A stretch of 64,000 nt of DNA, taken from NCBI GenBank assembly GCA_964511175.1, contig CAZEEI010000004.1, positions 27,401-91,400 on the forward strand, given 5' to 3'. Below, piece after piece: positions 10,893 through 64,000 of this stretch. The DNA is from an uncultured Pseudomonadales bacterium. GTDB lineage: Bacteria; Patescibacteriota; Microgenomatia; UBA1400; UBA1396. The notes beneath the pieces were generated by a model. That model had not been told where the DNA came from. It saw nothing but the letters and a program-made list of their open reading frames with translations, and made no database searches. How positions within the stretch are numbered: position 1 is the stretch's first letter; each line of letters opens with the position of its first letter. The translations under genes and the position numbers were made by a program.

Positions 10893-12185
10893 ATGGGATT
10901 AGTAAAACCAAAAACTAACTCTTTCGCTAAAATCAAAGTGGTTGGGGTCGGCGGTGGCGGCGGCAACGCAGTCAGCTCTATGGTGGCTACCCAGACTATT
11001 GAGGGTGTTGAGTTTGTGGCCATTAACACCGATGCCCAAGCCTTACTGGTCAATAAAGCCGAAAGTAAATTACAGATCGGCAGTAACTATACCAAGGGAT
11101 TGGGATCTGGCGCTGATCCGGAGGTGGGTCGTCAAGCAGCGGAAGAATCACGCGATAAAATCAAAGAGCTCATGTATGACACCGATATGGTGTTTATCAC
11201 GGCCGGCATGGGCGGCGGTACTGGCACCGGCGCTTCGCCAATCGTGGCGGAAATGGCTAAAGAAGTGGGCGCTTTAACTGTAGCGGTGGTAACCAAACCC
11301 TTTTTGTTTGAGGGAATGCGGCGTTCTACGGTGGCGGACGAGGGGATTGAGGCTCTCCGGGAATTTGTTGATACCCTAATTGTTATTCCTAACCAGCGCC
11401 TACTGGATGTAGTTAATCCCCAAATGACCCTACTCGACGCTTTTCATTTGGCTGATTCAGTGCTGGGACAAGGTGTGCAAGGTATTTCTGACTTAATTAC
11501 CAAACCAGGGCTAGTTAACGTTGATTTTGCCGACGTGCGCACCATTATGCTTGATTCTGGCAATGCTCTAATGGGTATCGGTGAAGCGGCGGGTGAAAAC
11601 CGTGCGGTAATCGCCGCCCGTGCCGCTATTGCTTCGCCACTGTTGGACGTTGCCATCAATGGCGCCAAGGGTATCCTTTTTAACATTACTGGTGGTCCCA
11701 ACATGACCCTGCCGGAAGTCTCTGAGGCTTCCATGATTATCAACCAGGCCGCTGATCCAGACGCTAATATTATTTTTGGGGCCACGATTGACGAAAATCT
11801 TGGCGACAAATTGAAGATTTCGGTTATCGCTACCGGCTTTGATAACACTGGTTACGCCCAAAACGCCTACCGCCGACCTCATTTTGGTGCTTACGACCGT
11901 AGTGCTAAAACTCAAACGTCAACCGTCCCTCTACCACTGAGTGCTTACGGCATTACTCCTCCTCCGCCGGCAGAAGAGGAAATCCAGCCGCTCCAACACA
12001 ATACCGTTAAAATTCGGCCGGCCAAAGATCAAAGTCTTTTTACCGCTCCGGTAAACACCGCACCGGAACCAACTACAACTGTCTCAACTGCGACCAATGC
12101 GGATGAAGTAGGAAGTGAAACCACGATCACCCCCGTAGAAGACGAATTTGATATTCCGGCTTTTCTGCGGCGCAATCAGAATTAG
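10893..12185 (+). CDS. ftsZ: Cell division GTPase FtsZ
   Basis: Tubulin signature GGGTGTG, a T7 loop, an N-terminal GVGGGGGNA motif and a C-terminal DIPAFLRR peptide. Confidence 0.95.
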
Positions 12186-16471: not shown

Positions 16472-16640
16472 AACTCACGGGTTAAGTTTGGCTGACTCAT
16501 CTTTTTTCGATTTTTTAATCTGATAGTAACGTCAACAAACAATTGTTACTATCAAAATAGAAGTGAAGATACATCAATACTTCACTAAACGGAGTTACTA
16601 TCATTAGAAAAATTACGAAGAAGATGAATCTCCCATGACC

Positions 16641-19622: not shown

Positions 19623-20447
19623 ATGAATGAACCCCAACAATTTGTTCAAGAACTAGACACTAACCTGATTCAGCCCAATCCGCACCAGCCGCGCAAACAT
19701 TTGCAGCCAGAAGAACTGCAGGATCTGGTCGATTCGGTCAAGATTCACGGCATACTAGAACCGATCGTGGTGGCTCATACGCCAGCTGGTTACCAAATCA
19801 TTGCGGGTGAGCGGCGCTGGCGCGCCGCCCAACGTGCTGGCCTAGCCACTGTGCCGGCTATCGTGAAAAAAACTTCACCACGCGGCATGCTGGAAATGTC
19901 GATCGTGGAAAACGTGCAGCGCTCTGACCTAAACTGTTTGGAACGGGCGCACGCGCTCAATCGCTTGGCTAGCGAATTTGGCCTTACCGCCAGCCAAATT
20001 GCGGAGCGAATCGGTAAATCGGTTTCTTACGTTTCTAATTCGATTAAGTTACTACAGTTACCCGATGCCCTCAAGGACGGACTACTCAGCGCCCAAATTT
20101 CCGAAGGCCACGCGCGGGCTCTCCAAGCCATTACCAGTTCAAAAAGCATGATTGAAGCTTACAAGCAGGTCCTGCGTGAAAACGGCTCCGTACGCCGAGC
20201 GGAAGAACTGGCTCGCCGCTTCCGCGACCAAGACGGGGAAAAGCGAGTCGAACACCGACCCCAAATCATGGTTTCTAAGGACATTGACCGCTGGCAAGAA
20301 CAACTCCACCACGCTCTTGGTGATCATTCACAGGTCAAACTGCGGCGCTCTTATCGGCAAACCCAAGTCATTATCAACCTCAAGGGGTCGCTCCAAGATA
20401 CTCAGCCCCAACTGGAGAAAATACTGGCCATTGCCAGCGCTAAATGA
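19623..20447 (+). CDS. parB: ParB/Spo0J-like partition protein
   Basis: ParB box IAGERRWRAAQRAGL and a downstream HTH (LTASQIAERIGKSVSYVSNSIKLL). Confidence 0.8.
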   Translation: MNEPQQFVQELDTNLIQPNPHQPRKHLQPEELQDLVDSVKIHGILEPIVVAHTPAGYQIIAGERRWRAAQRAGLATVPAIVKKTSPRGMLEMSIVENVQRSDLNCLERAHALNRLASEFGLTASQIAERIGKSVSYVSNSIKLLQLPDALKDGLLSAQISEGHARALQAITSSKSMIEAYKQVLRENGSVRRAEELARRFRDQDGEKRVEHRPQIMVSKDIDRWQEQLHHALGDHSQVKLRRSYRQTQVIINLKGSLQDTQPQLEKILAIASAK

Positions 20448-57195: not shown

Positions 57196-60100
57196 CTATT
57201 CAACATTACCAAATAATCTATCGGCCTCAGCTAAATTATTCACATTAACACTCGAATTTAAGAACGGATCAGCGGTTAGTTTGTTTCGGTCAAGGCCAGA
57301 CATAGTCGTCCGATACCAGTTAGATAGACTGCGAAACATAGTCGCATAATCGTCCGCATCACTAATATAACCTCTTTGCAACCGACCATCCGCACCGAAG
57401 AAAGGAACATTAATACCAGTAGTTAAGGATCCGCGACCTGCTCTCTTAACCCATTCCTGCCAGTGATCCGGTATCTTTACGTAGATCTCAACCATTCCGA
57501 GTATCCCACTGCAAACCTCAGATTCATCCAAATTACGCCAATTGCTGATCTCATTAAATTCACCTTCAAAAAACTGTTCTGCTTGGCGTTTAATTCCATC
57601 GTGACTCCAATCCAACGCCTGTTCCTCTCTAGGAGAGAGGACACTCTCTTGTAAATTGGGCGGTGAGTCGGGATTAGGTGGTTCGGGGCGTGGTGGTGCT
57701 TCTGGCGCGGCTGAATTTAATTTTGCTCTGAGTCCGGTCATCATAGAACTATTAAGATTGATCTTCTTGTCTTGCTCTAGAAGATTAAGTGCCACAACCA
57801 TTTCACGCCACATTTCAGGTTGTTCCCGACCAGCTTCAGCGATCATGTTTAAGTTAACAGCCAGACTGTCAGACAACTCTGTTGTTGTTAAGACATGATC
57901 ATTCGCAAGATTGAACATATCTAATGCCCCAGTAACAGACGGCACCGGCAAATAATTAAGGTTGTGTTCCGATGCTTCAAATAGGAGGGTATAAATCCCA
58001 AACAGAGTAGCCATAGCGTTACGAATCTCGACTCGTAGTGCCTCAGGATGATCCTTTTCATTAGCTTTGGCCGACTTGACGGCCGCTAATTCACTTTTCA
58101 GCATTGCTACCTGACGGGATAGCTCATCACGCACTCCTTCAACACTACTTCTTCCCAGAGATTCCTCTTCTGTTGAGGGAGTTGACTCCGGTGGTGTCGA
58201 TGACTCAACCGCCGGCGTAGGTGTTTCGGCAACTTGTTCGCTACGACCGCGACCCAGAACACCTCCTACTCTTCTACCAGCGCGTCCAACTATTTCTCCA
58301 AAATTTTTCCACAAACTTCCACCAGGAGTCTTAGCGGCTGATTTAGGTGTAGCATCTGAGTCAAATGGCAACACACTTTCCGGTAAAGCTTCGTCAGCTG
58401 CTGGTGTGGTGGGAGATCCGGCCTCAGGAGCACTAGGGGCACTAAGATCTGGCACCTCCACCGTCTTGCGTGCCTTTTGCTTTTCGACTAGCAAATAATC
58501 GCTAGCATCCAACAACAATTCTCGAACAACATTGCCCATGCTATCAACACCCCAAGAGTAGGGACCATTTTTACTAGTGGCCATATCCCTATGGGTTTGA
58601 GTAAGGCGAAGATTGCGATCTCTTATTACTGTCCATAATGCACCTAAAGTAGGTATCTTTTCTCCTTCCTGGAAGGTGGCTCGGAAATTATCATATCCAA
58701 CCCGAACTTGCTCGGGAGTCATGCCTAAGTGAGCAGCCAATTCGGCGGCATCATAGTTGGTGCCAAAATCCGCTTCTTCCAGGTTGTAGTCTTTAAATTT
58801 CCTTTCTCCGACCACCGGTGCTGATGTTGGCTCACTGGGAGGCTCACCCGATCCCGGCGCTGGCATATTCAGGGCCTCATCTAGCCCAGTCGGTCGGTGG
58901 GTTTCGGTGGGATCTTGGTGAGAAGTATCAACCCCACTGGGCAATAACCGCCCAAAACCACGTTCACGGAGGTACTGTTCTGCATCTTCTATAGTTATTG
59001 CACCCGCTTCAACGCCAGCCTGAATTAAGGCTTGGACATTACCACTAGCCTCGTCGTCTGGATTTTGCCATTTTCTGGCTGCCCGCAAAATTGCATCAAG
59101 CCAACCCTGACTAGGTGGGTAAGTAAACTCAACAACTTCGCCTCCAATCGGTGAATTTTCCGGCGTAGGTTGCTCGCCCTCTAGTCCGGAAACAATGGGA
59201 GCAGATGATGTTTCCACCTGCTGGTCTGGGGTTAAATCAAGACCACCGCCCGCGCCCAAACTTGCATCCACAACCGGCTGGAGTGGCAATATTTCCGCGG
59301 CTTGAAGAGGAGACGACGCTGGCGCGCCCTGATCCATGGGTTCCTCACGTTTAAACCTGCGCGCCACTGCACCAATCGCATCCCCAGCTTCGTTCACGAT
59401 ACTATTAATCAGTTCGTCGTATTCTCTGGTCTCGTCATCGATCGCTTGCTCAATAGCGTCCATATCCGCCCTGAGATCTTTTAATCTAGTTGCCAGCTCC
59501 GCTAAGGCATCCACACGTTTCTGTCGCTCTCTGTTTAACTGCTCGGCCTTCTTCATCCAGGCTGCAACGGCACCTTCTATTGAACTATCCCCAAAATCCG
59601 GCAGCCTATCAGCCGTTACACGCACCATTTGTAAAGCTTCTTGATAATTATCTGCCGCTTTGGTCGCACTCTCACCAGCTTTGTCCACTTGAGTCTGCAA
59701 CTTTAACGCGCTTTTCTCTTTTTCCTTAAAAGCGGCCATCATCTCCTGTAGATGAACGTCGATTGCGCTAATTCTCTCTGTTCTTGATCGGTCTGCCGCT
59801 ATTGAATTTCGCACCAACTTTTGTGCCTCGGCGATATTTTGACCAATATCGGATAATTGTTCAATGTTTAACTCAGTTATTTCTATTGCCGCTTCTAAGA
59901 AAACTATCCTCGTGTTCAACTCTTCTCTTTGCTTGTCACCAAGTTCCTGTTTTTCGATCTGAGCCTTAGCTCTATTGAGATTATTCTTATATTCCTCAAG
60001 TAATGCTCTATGTCTAGCCAATTCTTTTTGCCTTTCGGCATCAGAGCGAAGAGCAACGCCAGCTAATTCATTCTTACGAATGGCCGCGTTGGCATCGTAT

Positions 60101-60285
60101 TGTTTTTTCTTCATTTCTTGTTGCCAAGCTGATTGATACTTATCGCCTTTTTCTAAAGGAACAGCTTGTCCTTGTACAACTGAAACGTCCATTTGTTCAT
60201 AACCCGCTGCGCGCAACTGTTTTTCAGTGGTTATTTCTTCTGGTGACATAGTCTGATCCTCTTTTCCTTTTTCTATAGCCAACAA
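57196..60285 (-). CDS. Very large hypothetical protein (1029 aa): N-terminal coiled coils, central Pro/Ser/Glu-rich low-complexity segments, C-terminal globular domain
   Basis: Long uninterrupted ORF. No signal peptide and no catalytic motif recognised. Confidence 0.4.
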   Translation of the reverse strand: MLAIEKGKEDQTMSPEEITTEKQLRAAGYEQMDVSVVQGQAVPLEKGDKYQSAWQQEMKKKQYDANAAIRKNELAGVALRSDAERQKELARHRALLEEYKNNLNRAKAQIEKQELGDKQREELNTRIVFLEAAIEITELNIEQLSDIGQNIAEAQKLVRNSIAADRSRTERISAIDVHLQEMMAAFKEKEKSALKLQTQVDKAGESATKAADNYQEALQMVRVTADRLPDFGDSSIEGAVAAWMKKAEQLNRERQKRVDALAELATRLKDLRADMDAIEQAIDDETREYDELINSIVNEAGDAIGAVARRFKREEPMDQGAPASSPLQAAEILPLQPVVDASLGAGGGLDLTPDQQVETSSAPIVSGLEGEQPTPENSPIGGEVVEFTYPPSQGWLDAILRAARKWQNPDDEASGNVQALIQAGVEAGAITIEDAEQYLRERGFGRLLPSGVDTSHQDPTETHRPTGLDEALNMPAPGSGEPPSEPTSAPVVGERKFKDYNLEEADFGTNYDAAELAAHLGMTPEQVRVGYDNFRATFQEGEKIPTLGALWTVIRDRNLRLTQTHRDMATSKNGPYSWGVDSMGNVVRELLLDASDYLLVEKQKARKTVEVPDLSAPSAPEAGSPTTPAADEALPESVLPFDSDATPKSAAKTPGGSLWKNFGEIVGRAGRRVGGVLGRGRSEQVAETPTPAVESSTPPESTPSTEEESLGRSSVEGVRDELSRQVAMLKSELAAVKSAKANEKDHPEALRVEIRNAMATLFGIYTLLFEASEHNLNYLPVPSVTGALDMFNLANDHVLTTTELSDSLAVNLNMIAEAGREQPEMWREMVVALNLLEQDKKINLNSSMMTGLRAKLNSAAPEAPPRPEPPNPDSPPNLQESVLSPREEQALDWSHDGIKRQAEQFFEGEFNEISNWRNLDESEVCSGILGMVEIYVKIPDHWQEWVKRAGRGSLTTGINVPFFGADGRLQRGYISDADDYATMFRSLSNWYRTTMSGLDRNKLTADPFLNSSVNVNNLAEADRLFGNVE

Positions 60286-60344: not shown

Positions 60345-62183
60345 ATGATCACCGCCCAACAACTGCGCACTAAATTTCTTGATTTCTTCCGCGAAAAAGA
60401 CCACGCGATTATTCCTTCGGCCTCACTGATTCCCGACAACGATCCCACCACTTTATTCATCACTGCCGGCATGCATCCGCTGGTACCTTATTTGCTAGGC
60501 CAGCCTCATCCGGCAGGACGTCGCTTAGCAGATATCCAAAAATGTATGCGTACGGTTGATATTGAAGAAGTAGGGGATCGCACTCACTTCACTTTCTTTG
60601 AAATGTTAGGTAACTGGTCGCTGGGCGACTACTTTAAGCGCGAAACCATCAATTGGAGTTGGGAGTTCCTGACTGATCCCAAGTGGCTGGGATTAAATCC
60701 GGAGAAATTGTTTGTTTCCGTTTTCACCGGTGATACCGACGCCCCTCGCGATGAAGAGGCAGCGCAAATTTGGCAGGAAGTTTTGACTCGAGCCGGTGTG
60801 AGCCACGCTGATCAGCGTCTTTATTTTTACCCTAAATCCGAAAATTGGTGGGGACCGGCCGGCCAAACCGGACCCTGTGGCCCGGATACGGAAATTTTCT
60901 ACTATACCGGCGACGGTGATCCGTTTGCACCAGGGTTTGCCGACGAACCGGCCAAAAGCGGCGGCGAATTTGTCGAAATCTGGAACAACGTCTTCATGCA
61001 GTACAACAAAATGGCCAACGGCACCTTTGAACAGTTGGCACAGAAAAACGTGGATACTGGCCTCGGGTTGGAACGGATGGTGGCGATCCTTAACTGGCTA
61101 CAGGGCGATTTAGCTGAACCGGATCCTTACCTGACCGATCTTTTTAGGCCAATGATTAATCAGCTGGAAAGATCAACCGCTCGCCAATATTCGGACCCGG
61201 ATGCCAAACGGTCAATGAGAATTATTACCGATCACCTGCGGTCGGCTCTCTTTATCATCAGTGATGGTGTTGTTCCCGCCAATAAAGAACGCGGCTATGT
61301 TCTGCGTCGTTTAATTCGCCGAGCTGTACGAGAAATCTATAAACTCAATCCTCAGTTTGACGAAATCGACACTGTCATTGAGCATTGGATTCAGGAATTT
61401 GGCCACAATACTGCGTACGCGACCGAATACCCCGAACTTTCGGCGGGCAATCCTAATCTGGAGAAAGTTACTGCGATTCTGCTGAAGGAAGTGAATAAGT
61501 TTATTGTGGCGCTGCGCAAAGGATTGTTGGAAATTAATAAATTGCCTGTACTCGACGGCAAAGCGGCTTTTGATCTCTACCAGTCTTATGGTTTTCCCCT
61601 GGAAATGAGTATCGAAATTGCCAAGGAAAAAGGGCAGGCGATTGATGCTACCGCTTTTGCCGCGGAGTTTGCCAAACACCAGGATTTGTCCCGCACTCAA
61701 TCGAGTCAAACTTTTAAGGGCGGCTTAGCTGATCACTCCGAGCAGGCGACCCGCTATCACACTGCCACCCATTTACTGCACGCGGCTTTGCGCCGAACTT
61801 TGGGGGATGCGGTTCATCAGGAGGGTTCTAATATCACCGCCGAGCGTCTGCGGTTTGATTTTACTTTTGACCGAGCCTTAACCGACGACGAAATTGAGCA
61901 AGTCGAAACTTGGATTAATGAACAAATTCGTGCTGATCGACCGGTGACCAAACAGGTTTTGCCTAAGGAGGAGGCGCTGGCTTCTGGTGCCCTAGCTTTC
62001 TTTAAGGAAAAATATCCGGATATGGTGACGGTCTACACGATCGGCGATACGCCGGGCTGGGTGAGTCGCGAGCTGTGCGGCGGACCCCACGTGAGTCATA
62101 CCGGCGAAATTGGTCCTATTAAGATTTTTAAGCAAAAACCGGTTAGTGCCGAGGTCCGCCGTATCTATCTGCGCTTCTGCTGA
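60345..62183 (+). CDS. alaS: Alanyl-tRNA synthetase, short form (catalytic, tRNA-recognition and editing domains; no C-Ala domain)
   Basis: The N-terminus ...FLDFFREKDHAIIPSASLIPDNDPTTLFITAGM...WGPAGQTGPCGPDTEIFYY is a class II AlaRS core. The editing-domain motifs HTATHLLH and CGGPHV are present. At 612 aa it is about 250 aa shorter than canonical AlaRS. Confidence 0.85.
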   Translation: MITAQQLRTKFLDFFREKDHAIIPSASLIPDNDPTTLFITAGMHPLVPYLLGQPHPAGRRLADIQKCMRTVDIEEVGDRTHFTFFEMLGNWSLGDYFKRETINWSWEFLTDPKWLGLNPEKLFVSVFTGDTDAPRDEEAAQIWQEVLTRAGVSHADQRLYFYPKSENWWGPAGQTGPCGPDTEIFYYTGDGDPFAPGFADEPAKSGGEFVEIWNNVFMQYNKMANGTFEQLAQKNVDTGLGLERMVAILNWLQGDLAEPDPYLTDLFRPMINQLERSTARQYSDPDAKRSMRIITDHLRSALFIISDGVVPANKERGYVLRRLIRRAVREIYKLNPQFDEIDTVIEHWIQEFGHNTAYATEYPELSAGNPNLEKVTAILLKEVNKFIVALRKGLLEINKLPVLDGKAAFDLYQSYGFPLEMSIEIAKEKGQAIDATAFAAEFAKHQDLSRTQSSQTFKGGLADHSEQATRYHTATHLLHAALRRTLGDAVHQEGSNITAERLRFDFTFDRALTDDEIEQVETWINEQIRADRPVTKQVLPKEEALASGALAFFKEKYPDMVTVYTIGDTPGWVSRELCGGPHVSHTGEIGPIKIFKQKPVSAEVRRIYLRFC

Positions 62184-62263
62184 GGGTGTAACCCTCCAGA
62201 GGCAAAACAGTTGAGGGTGTCACCCTGAAATTTTCTACCTCTGGAGGGTTACACCCTCAGCAG
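62177..62263. repeat. Perfect 26-bp inverted repeat (ctgctgagggtgtaaccctccagagg / cctctggagggttacaccctcagcag) with a 35-nt spacer carrying a further GAGGGTG-T-CACCCTC hairpin. The alaS stop codon lies inside the left arm.
   Basis: Read directly from the sequence. Each arm also contains an internal GAGGGT...ACCCTC palindrome. Confidence 0.7.
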
Positions 62264-62327
62264 ACCCGGCTGGACTCTTGCTACTCAGGGTAAAACTTGC
62301 TTCAATAGAGACAGTAATATGACTGCC

Positions 62328-64000
62328 TTAAACCAGCACCTCGCTTTGGTTTTTCTTCCGGACGCGCTTTGCGTGGCGCTCTGGCAGTCGCTGGATGGCC
62401 GCACTAGCATTCTGGCTCAATCTGACTTCACCCCTCTGGAATCAACTACCTTACCAGCAATCAGTACAGCTCTGGACTCGGTCTTGGACCAGTTAGGCGA
62501 GGCAGGTTTAAGAGTTAAAGACTGTCTATTTTGCGTCCCCAACTCTTGGACGGAAGGCGGCGGCCTGCGCGGCGAGAAAAAAGCTATCCTGAAACAAATT
62601 TCCGACGACTTAATGTTAAAACCACTGGGCTTTGTCGTGAACAGCGACGCGCTGGCCGCCGCCAACACCCTGCGCACTGGTCATCCCTTTACCGGCCTAG
62701 TACTCTTTGTCTCCGATCTGGCGTTCAATGCCGAACTCTATACTAATGGCGAATTGGTCAAAAGCGAAGAAGTCGGCCGCAGTCAGATCGAAACCGACAT
62801 ATCTGAGCTACTGACCCGCCTACCAGCGACTCTGACCCATATTCTGATTGTCGAAAGTAGTAGTGCAGCGGAAACCAAATCCCTGGAAACTTTGCTTCAG
62901 CAGGATGGCCGCGCCATCGAAATCATTTCCCGTGCCTCGTTCGCTAGCACCACCATTACTACCGGCGGCGGCGAAACGCTCGTCAACCAATCCGGATCAA
63001 CACCCGCCGCTGCTTCCCAATCGGAAAAAAAGACTCAACCGGCAGAGGACGAGGACGGATCATTTAAGCCGCCCGCTTTCCTCATTAACCAAACTGCTCC
63101 TCCGGCCACGGCGGTAGTTGATGCCGAACCCGTGACCGCTGAACCGGAACAAAAACCGGCCGGCCGTCGCTTTGCCTGGCCTCATTGGTCTTGGCCGCAT
63201 TGGCAACTAGCTTGGCCCCGCTTAGCTGTCCGCCGATCTTGGTGGCTAGGTATTATTCCGGTGGCGGCGGCACTGCTGGGCGCCTTCTGGTGGTTAAAAC
63301 AATCCTACCGCGCCGTTGTCGCCGTAGAAATTAACAGCCAATTAATCGAAACGGAACAAACCTTTCTCTTAGCGGCCGCCGACGCTGACCTTAGTAGCGC
63401 CACTACTAGTGCTTTGCGCGCCCAGCCGGTTACCGAAAGCGTCAGCGTTGATAAGGAAGTACCCACCACCGGCTCCAAAATAATTGGTGACCCGGCCAAG
63501 GGCAAAGTTACTATTTTCAACCGCACCACCCAAGCCAAGAATTTTCCAGCTGGAACCAGGTTAGTTAATAACAAGTTGGTATTTACCCTGGATAGCGAAA
63601 CCACCGTTGCCTCCAGTTCAGCCGCTAATGATTATGCTCCCGGTTCGGTTGAGGCCAATATCACTGCCACCGCCATCGGTCCGGCCGGCAATCTGAATAA
63701 AGACACCGAGTTCGCTGTAGCCAACTTTGACGTCACTTCCTACGTAGCCAAAAATAAGGAACCGCTCGGTGGCGGCAATAGTCGGGAGATTCAGGCTGTT
63801 TCCGCCAAAGATATCGAACAAGCCAAAAATGATCTCCAACAGGCGGCAACCGAACAACTGCGCGAGCGCTTTAGTGGTAGCAGCAGCGATGCCGAACCCG
63901 TTTTCTTCACTGGCGTGACTAATATTATGACCGAAAATGCAACCGCTAAAATCGGCGAAGAAAAGAAATTTGTGGGAGTTAGCCTTACCGTTGAGGGAAC
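62328..64000 (+). CDS. Hypothetical protein, 3'-truncated by the window end (cytoplasmic N-domain, one TM helix, large extracytoplasmic Thr/Ala-rich domain)
   Basis: Open frame from ATG 62328 to the window end. It is absent from the ORF track because no stop is reached. TM helix WWLGIIPVAAALLGAFWWL at about aa 300. The N-terminal MTALNQHLALVFLPDALCVALWQ... could be an actin-like (PilM/FtsA-like) fold, but that is speculative. Confidence 0.4.

Follow-up and report, generated by a model that had tools for sequence, protein, structure and literature searches.

A REP/REPIN-like palindromic element with three phased units overlaps the alaS stop codon in a Patescibacteria genome

Background

The closest described counterparts of the element analysed here are REPINs, hairpin-forming doublets of repetitive extragenic palindromic (REP) sequences, known from Pseudomonas fluorescens SBW25 and other Proteobacteria (Bertels and Rainey 2011; PMC3116915, PMC3337134). 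According to Bertels and Rainey, a REPIN comprises two inverted, short imperfect palindromes with their flanks, separated by a less conserved, hairpin-forming spacer, and exhibits preferred spacings (PMC3337134). The GI REPIN of SBW25 is 89 bp long (PMC3337134), REPs of class 2 are characterized by a conserved 5' tetranucleotide foot, GT[AG]G (PMC6006769), and Pseudomonas REPINs are present in hundreds of copies per genome. Here we describe a palindromic element of 89 nt, composed of three phased units, which overlaps the end of alaS, the gene for alanyl-tRNA synthetase (AlaRS), in a 64,000-nt stretch of DNA (hereafter the window; GenBank assembly GCA_964511175.1, contig CAZEEI010000004.1, positions 27,401 to 91,400) from an uncultured bacterium of the Patescibacteria, or Candidate Phyla Radiation (CPR).

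Related systems differ in organization. The clustered REP arrays of Escherichia coli and Salmonella, called bacterial interspersed mosaic elements (BIMEs), combine at least two palindromic units with linkers of fixed length in transcribed intercistronic or 3' regions; the linkers are conserved motifs in their own right, and a REP measures about 35 nt. Enterobacterial REPs protect the upstream mRNA from 3' exonucleases. In E. coli, REPs no more than 15 nt away from a stop codon reportedly stall ribosomes, trigger trans-translation and lower expression (Liang, Rudd and Deutscher 2015, Mol Cell). Miniature inverted-repeat transposable elements (MITEs) such as Correia, ERIC and RUP are small and non-coding, have terminal inverted repeats and are found inserted at the ends of genes, to which they occasionally contribute a stop codon or terminator. 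BIMEs can stabilise upstream mRNA (earlier work cited in PMC3337134).

Results and Discussion

An 89-nt palindrome around the alaS stop codon

The element (Table 1) is mostly intergenic, with 81 of its 89 nt beyond alaS; its 5' edge is the second base of the Phe611 codon, its 3' edge is at 62264, and the alaS TGA stop codon (62181-62183) lies inside its left arm. An earlier reading of this DNA, made from the sequence alone, had described a perfect 26-bp inverted repeat around the stop codon, with its second copy 35 nt downstream and additional GAGGGTG…CACCCTC hairpins in the arms and the spacer. The repeat, the 35 nt between its arms and the additional hairpins are all there, but the arms are 27 nt long and the second one ends at 62264 rather than 62263. 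The spacer between the perfect arms is itself partly self-complementary, and if the whole element is taken as a single palindrome centred at 62220, its 44-nt arms are 89% complementary.

The internal organization is periodic. Three 15-nt self-complementary copies of GAGGGT-N3-ACCCTC follow each other at exactly 31 nt, start to start. In the window, this short, imperfectly palindromic unit reads GAGGGT-GTA-ACCCTC and has the conserved flanks CTGA... and ...CAGAGG. The outer two units together with their flanks are exact inverted copies of each other, which creates the 27-bp perfect stem, and the exact identity of the arms, which reaches beyond the unit, indicates a duplicative origin of the element.

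No other sequence of the window folds as well. The region 62160-62285 yields -71.9 kcal/mol (z = -9.4) as RNA, the 89 nt alone yield -65.8 kcal/mol (z = -13.1), and the fold as single-stranded DNA yields -39.4 kcal/mol (z = -9.0). Among 3195 sliding windows of 100 nt, the one at the palindrome folds best (-56.6 kcal/mol against a mean of -21.5 and a standard deviation of 6.5) at a G+C content of 51%. No longer inverted repeat is present elsewhere in the window or in about 1.05 Mb of DNA of the loci that we fetched for comparison. No U-tract follows the long stem, as had been noticed in the sequence-only reading; the bases found there are CCCGGCTGG / CCCGGCUGG, and a weak U-rich tail is present only on the 5-bp central hairpin. 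The long stem therefore lacks the U-tract of an intrinsic (Rho-independent) terminator. Rfam reported only tRNAs at gathering thresholds, and an E-value scan of the region returned only sub-threshold models of miRNA precursors, as is typical of a generic long hairpin. Tandem Repeats Finder reported nothing at the element, because the spacers are too divergent.

The element is absent from the alaS loci of relatives

We compared 11 distinct alaS neighbourhoods of relatives whose AlaRS is 67-74% identical to that of the window (loci L002, L003, L100, L101, L102, L104, L105, L107, L109/L110/L111, L112 and L113). The palindrome sequence is absent after alaS in all 11, and the intergenic length varies from 1 to 187 nt: the gap is a single nucleotide in L002, 17 nt separate the stop codon from the promoter block of the next gene in L104, L101 has a canonical GC hairpin with a T-tract, and L102, L105, L107, L109-L111, L112 and L113 have unstructured spacers. 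Canonical GC-hairpin and T-tract terminators do occur in the clade (L101, L112), which indicates that the palindrome is not the normal terminator of this lineage. Among more distant relatives found by a metagenome scan (AlaRS about 50% identical), there is neither a conserved hairpin after alaS nor any member of the unit family. Because the palindrome is absent from relatives and the tail of AlaRS is variable (1-9 aa past the conserved YLRF), the palindrome is a recent, lineage-specific addition in a tolerant spot and not a conserved alaS signal.

A different structure occupies the same position in L003 (4412-4530, the same sequence as L004 1947-2065; AlaRS 74% identical), namely an unrelated hairpin of about 115 nt directly past the alaS stop codon (-66 kcal/mol, z = -8.4), whose arms contain the self-palindrome GAAGTACGTACTTC. 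It may represent a second family of palindromic elements at the same 'safe' site. The contig of L100 (AlaRS 71% identical) ends 18 nt past the alaS stop codon (11828-11845, CACCTCCCAGGCTGAGAA), where a longer palindrome may have broken the assembly.

The phased unit recurs at unrelated gene ends

A search for the unit in all fetched loci of relatives revealed two further loci, each with a doublet at exactly 31 nt. In L002 (4140/4171, CCTGGAAGGTTTAACCCTC / CCTGGAGGGTTTAACCTTC) the doublet is located between a 160-aa open reading frame (ORF) and the convergent dinB, and in L104 (15003/15034, TAGGGTTTAACCTTC / CGAGGTCTAACCTTT) it is located between the stop codon of a sortase gene and the start codon of ruvX, reading gagTAGGGTTTAACCTTC followed by gagCGAGGTCTAACCTTT. 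A stop codon is found at the edge of a unit in all three loci: that of alaS in the window (cTGAGGGTGTAACCCTCCAGAGG), that of dinB on the minus strand of L002 (cTGAAGGTTAAACCCTCCAGGGG) and that of the sortase gene in L104 (gagTAGGGTTTAACCTTC); like the window copy, those of L002 and L104 overlap the stop codon. The three loci are not orthologous, and the AlaRS sequences of their hosts differ by about 27-30%. The sortase-ruvX gap is 43 nt in L104. This junction was read in six further relatives, where the genes either overlap or are separated by at most 17 nt; one of these relatives (L105) has an AlaRS 84.6% identical to that of L104. The occurrence at non-orthologous sites, with the orthologous sortase-ruvX junctions short and empty, argues for a dispersed repeat of low copy number.

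The common unit is a 15-nt near-perfect palindrome, GARGGT-N3-ACCYTC, with the short flanks CTGA... / ...CCAG; of the spacers between phased units the length is kept and the sequence is not. The motif GGTNNNACC occurs 150 times in 913 kb, with no overall enrichment, and only ten pairs of it lie within 80 nt of each other, of which four are spaced by exactly 31 nt: two pairs in the window, one in L002 and one in L104. In shuffled DNA, the consensus-pair scan gave 0.4 matches per 263 kb. The departures of L002 from the window consensus (G>A at position 3 of the first unit, C>T at position 13 of the second) pair with each other in the hairpin formed between units.

Small hairpin pairs of the GGGGCNTTGCCCC type, 24 nt apart, were seen in distant CPR loci (L038 4434-4470 and 9018-9054, L039 9026-9062), one of them a short distance past alaS. 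Doublets of phased hairpins may thus be more widespread among CPR genomes.

Comparison with known repeats and the favoured explanation

With moderate confidence, we interpret the palindrome as a small repeat of the dispersed, palindromic REP/REPIN/BIME kind that was inserted, or expanded locally, specifically in this lineage, because it is absent at alaS of relatives and the phased unit is found at unrelated gene ends in two genomes. The likeness to REPINs extends to the palindromic unit with conserved flanks, the inverted pair of units with an asymmetric centre (GTA/TAC here, AA/TT in REPINs), the less conserved hairpin-forming spacer, the preferred spacings, the location at a gene end and even the 89-bp length. 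With BIMEs the element shares the multiple palindromic units, the fixed linker lengths and the location, but its spacers are unrelated and its units measure 15-19 nt. As in the stop-proximal REPs of E. coli, a stable palindrome is located close to a stop codon, which here is inside the stem. MITEs have in common with it the small size, the lack of coding capacity, the terminal inverted repeats and the insertion at a gene end.

There are, however, several observations that weigh against this interpretation. Second copies of the element were found nowhere in the 64-kb window by a mismatch search, a consensus-pair scan or an unfiltered covariance model, and only three loci are known in about 1 Mb of Patescibacteria DNA of fetched loci. 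These counts give no sign of the high copy number that is the hallmark of REPs and REPINs. Scans of 50 window ORFs against Pfam revealed neither a Y1 HUH transposase (REP-associated tyrosine transposase, RAYT), the gene of which usually has REPs on its flanks, nor an insertion sequence (IS) transposase. No GT[AG]G foot is present 5' of the stems, where the bases are CTGCT and CCTCTG, and the flanks of the element (...GCGCT and CCCGG...) contain no direct repeat that would represent a target-site duplication. The doublets of L002 and L104 are direct and not clearly inverted, unlike those of REPINs, and fold weakly (L002, -27 kcal/mol, z about -2; L104, -14 kcal/mol, z about -1.4). Covariation in the long hairpin, in an alignment of six rows from three loci only, is weak (0.238 versus 0.168 in shuffled alignments, 44 of 500 of which reach the observed value); for the hairpins of individual units it is 0.122 versus 0.151, and pair counts favour the hairpin between units mildly but not significantly. 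The two 31-nt periods of L104 resemble each other also outside the unit, with 20 of 31 positions alike by visual count, which could reflect local tandem duplication instead of transposition. The element also departs from REPINs in its third, central unit, its 8-nt overlap with a coding sequence and its CPR host. We prefer the label REP/REPIN-like over the 'small MITE-like insertion' of the sequence-only reading, as a statement of resemblance only, since there is no target-site duplication and no second copy in 64 kb; no related autonomous IS was found in the window either. Of the three readings offered there, the insertion nevertheless comes closest, given the absence from relatives and the recurrence of the 31-nt-phased unit elsewhere. 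Our claim is that the element resembles a REP/REPIN or BIME and probably acts like one, and not that it is a REPIN.

Further searches for copies gave the following results. The covariance model R1, built from the doublets, retrieved only its three training loci from 1.0 Mb of CPR loci and 85 kb of remaining relatives; a match in L030 (E = 0.026) is an unrelated simple hairpin. The 18-mer GAGGGTGTAACCCTCCAG has 15 single matches in unrelated phyla in a contig collection that does not include the source genome, which is about the number expected by chance and is partly due to a conserved coding 21-mer. This 21-mer, TGAGGGTGTAACCCTCCAGCC, recurs in Actinomycetota and a proteobacterial metagenome-assembled genome (L005, L007, L008, L010, L011) and is presumably a conserved coding segment unrelated to the element. 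A scan of viral contigs gave 0 matches, and the element has no blastn match in collections of phages and plasmids. The integron attC, dif, res and parS sites were also considered and dropped, as their core motifs do not match the element, and the serine recombinase (63-1118) and ParB (19623-20444) are encoded far away.

The units come in sets phased by exactly 31 nt, three of them in the window copy. If transposition or local expansion of such a repeat is accepted, the element would have landed in the sole free space of the junction, which extends from the variable tail of AlaRS to the conserved promoter of the next gene, and would now supply the last codon (Cys612) and the TGA stop codon of alaS, a case in which a repeat can rewrite the end of an essential gene. 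Mobility of the unit and its mechanism, transcription through the element and all its effects as RNA are inferred. If transcribed, the element would give the alaS mRNA a highly stable 3'-terminal hairpin, an action that is probably incidental. Likely by-products, as opposed to dedicated control of alaS, would be a barrier to 3' exonucleases and some degree of insulation or of termination before the next promoter is reached, which could lessen read-through into the next unit. The 27-bp duplex is within the range of RNase III substrates. With the stop codon at positions 6-8 of the stem, a terminating ribosome would have to open roughly the first 15 bp.

Alternative explanations

The main alternative, which we regard as unlikely, is that the phased units are sites at which a dimeric DNA-binding protein acts on the downstream promoter (an operator, sites of a nucleoid-associated protein, or a transcription roadblock). 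Each 15-bp palindrome, with its 6-bp half-sites and 3-bp centre, would be bound by one dimer, and the 31-bp spacing would place the dimers on the same face of the helix. The units are indeed near-perfect palindromes, and the preservation of both unit and exact 31-bp spacing (about three helical turns) in three genomes, in which the spacers are not preserved, would be selected just as well by a protein that binds DNA cooperatively, a further point against the dispersed repeat. If transcription starts where the conserved promoter would place it, the unit centres are about 62, 93 and 124 bp upstream of that start, and the second unit of L104 abuts the ruvX start codon. On the other hand, the L002 copy is flanked by two convergent genes, a setting in which one would not expect a promoter, and 27-nt arms identical beyond the unit point to duplication and not to convergent evolution of sites. 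There is no other site in 64 kb and no candidate regulator adjacent, and one pair of the unit has changed from G-C to A-T on both half-sites, so that pairing is kept and base identity is not.

Less probable still is a factor-independent, 'I-shaped' terminator without a U-tract, or a stabiliser of the RNA 3' end, that evolved in place for alaS. The position exactly between the alaS stop codon and the conserved -35 of the next gene, the extreme stability of the hairpin and the presence of a different long hairpin at the same position in L003 are compatible with it, and the central hairpin is followed by GAAATTTTCT, or by CAACTGTTTT on the other strand, both with weak terminator-like scores. Yet the long stem has no U-tract behind it, most relatives have no hairpin here (in L104 only 17 nt separate the stop codon from the conserved promoter block), canonical terminators are used elsewhere in relatives, and the presence of the unit at other loci suggests that the sequence came ready-made.

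We would give little credence to the proposal that the phased units, embedded as they are at stop codons, are not selfish DNA but a functional signal peculiar to this clade of Patescibacteria, either a translation-coupled RNA switch or a protein recognition array marking gene ends. In the former version, a ribosome on the stop codon would cause the pairing of units 1 and 3 to be replaced by that of units 2 and 3, setting the fate of the transcript or the expression downstream.

The same alternative pairing could be invoked for a regulatory site specific to alaS, as proposed in the sequence-only reading in the form of an attenuator or an AlaRS autoregulatory site, which we consider very improbable. 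The palindrome does overlap the alaS stop codon, and units 1 and 3 (-65.8 kcal/mol) compete with units 2 and 3, which pair instead when the 5' arm is removed (-31.3 kcal/mol). The sequence, however, is not kept at alaS of any relative, and its related copies are at dinB and between the sortase gene and ruvX. Moreover, the element is at the 3' end, unlike the E. coli alaS palindromes, which reportedly flank the transcription start (work attributed to Putney and Schimmel, 1981). The AlaRS of the window also lacks the C-Ala domain, which is reported to bind DNA (PMC8887476).

Finally, although chimeric reads can yield perfect palindromes and the L100 contig breaks 18 nt past alaS, an artefact of assembly or amplification by chimeric inverted duplication is hardly credible, because an independent Logan assembly of run SRR8925769 (L001) contains the identical sequence, both flanks are collinear with relatives, and the arms are merely 27 nt long with an imperfect, structured interior.

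Coordinates and context of the junction

Table 1. Features of the alaS junction, in window coordinates.
Feature	Position	Strand	Description
alaS	60345..62183	+	ATG-initiated ORF, 612 aa, short-form alanine--tRNA ligase (Pfam and NCBIfam NF002436)
Palindromic element	62176..62264		REP/REPIN-like, 89 nt; covers the last 8 nt of alaS
Left arm	62176..62202	+	TCTGCTGAGGGTGTAACCCTCCAGAGG, 27 nt; perfect complement of the right arm; holds codon 612 (TGC) and TGA
Unit 1	62182..62196	+	GAGGGTGTAACCCTC; 6-bp stem, 3-nt centre GTA
Unit 2	62213..62227	+	GAGGGTGTCACCCTG; central small hairpin, followed by GAAATTTTCT
Right arm	62238..62264	+	27 nt; pairs with 62176-62202
Unit 3	62244..62258	-	unit 1 inverted; the minus strand reads GAGGGTGTAACCCTC
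Predicted promoter of the downstream gene	62278..62306	+	-35 TTGCTA (62278-62283), 17-nt spacer, -10 TTCAAT (62301-62306)
Downstream gene	62319..64000	+	>560 aa, runs off the window; syntenic alaS neighbour

The predicted promoter begins 13 nt past the palindrome and contains TG at 62298-62299 in its spacer. In an alignment of five relatives, TTG and TGnTTnAnT are invariant, and the block precedes the start codon (ATG) of the large gene after alaS by 6-12 nt (62278-62321 in the window, 4555-4595 in L003, 11850-11888 in L104, with equivalents in L102 and L107). It is consistent with an extended -10 promoter that would give rise to leaderless or near-leaderless mRNA in this clade. Being located between the end of alaS and the next promoter, the palindrome fills the gap before the next transcription unit. 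In relatives, the downstream gene is followed by a sortase gene, ruvX and yceG.

AlaRS without C-Ala is the norm of the lineage

The sequence-only reading had described the AlaRS of the window as having catalytic and editing domains but no C-Ala domain, which agrees with our analysis of the ORF, its motifs and its Pfam matches: tRNA-synt_2c (residues 7-471) and tRNA_SAD (561-608) are the only domains detected, HTATH (HxxxH) and CGGPH (CxxxH) are present, and there is no Pfam match to DHHA1 or C-Ala at the C-terminus. The implied oddity of such a protein, however, does not hold. It matches NCBIfam NF002436 (PRK01584), a 595-position equivalog model of alanine--tRNA ligase, with 714.4 bits at a cut-off of 529, residues 2-607 covering model positions 1-588, and shows the same catalytic and editing architecture as this short form, with no notable difference. 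The best 120 clusters of homologues are all 566-670 aa long, and those with names belong to Woesebacteria, Uhrbacteria, Microgenomates, Gottesmanbacteria or the 'Patescibacteria group'; the nearest named homologue is from a Candidatus Woesebacteria genome (69% identity). Given the full-length match and the length of these clusters, the absence of C-Ala is real and yet ordinary for the lineage. An AlaRS that lacks C-Ala and keeps the editing domain is apparently the standard form across Patescibacteria.

Recent biochemical papers on AlaRS (PMC10036535; PMC8887476) stress a universal four-domain prototype and name only viral, mitochondrial and split archaeal exceptions. Annotators should be aware that an AlaRS without C-Ala is the norm of this phylum despite that prototype, and that a long palindrome at the end of an aminoacyl-tRNA synthetase gene is not necessarily regulatory.

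Two candidate peculiarities of the alaS 3' end were rejected. The extra residues of AlaRS homologues of 639-649 aa are N-terminal mis-starts and not C-terminal read-through into an element, and a SECIS or readthrough signal at the alaS stop codon was dismissed, as homologues terminate at the equivalent position and simply vary in the tail past YLRF.

The window and its other features

The window is chromosomal DNA of Patescibacteria, with ATP synthase genes, murG, ftsA, ftsZ, ileS, ftsW, parB, typA and 11 tRNA genes. Confirmed genome-wide, the element would provide a described REP/REPIN-like family in the small, gene-dense CPR genomes, in which such families are little documented; a full-text literature search for the pairings of CPR with REP and of Patescibacteria with MITE returned papers with neither term in the title or abstract.

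The second-best inverted repeat of the window (16489-16635, with 42-nt arms, 71% complementary) is in the spacer between convergent ftsW-like and NUDIX genes, and its arms contain GATAGTAAC once and GTTACTATC twice, inverted and direct. The serine-recombinase ORF at 63-1118 (Recombinase and Zn_ribbon_recom domains), the N-terminus of which is possibly missing at the window edge, is adjacent to tRNA-Glu (1298-1372), and the two may mark the border of an integrated element. Divergently from alaS, the minus strand (57196-60285) carries an ORF of 1029 aa with no Pfam match, and large ORFs (809-1018 aa) without domain matches occupy the same position in L003, L100, L109 and L112.

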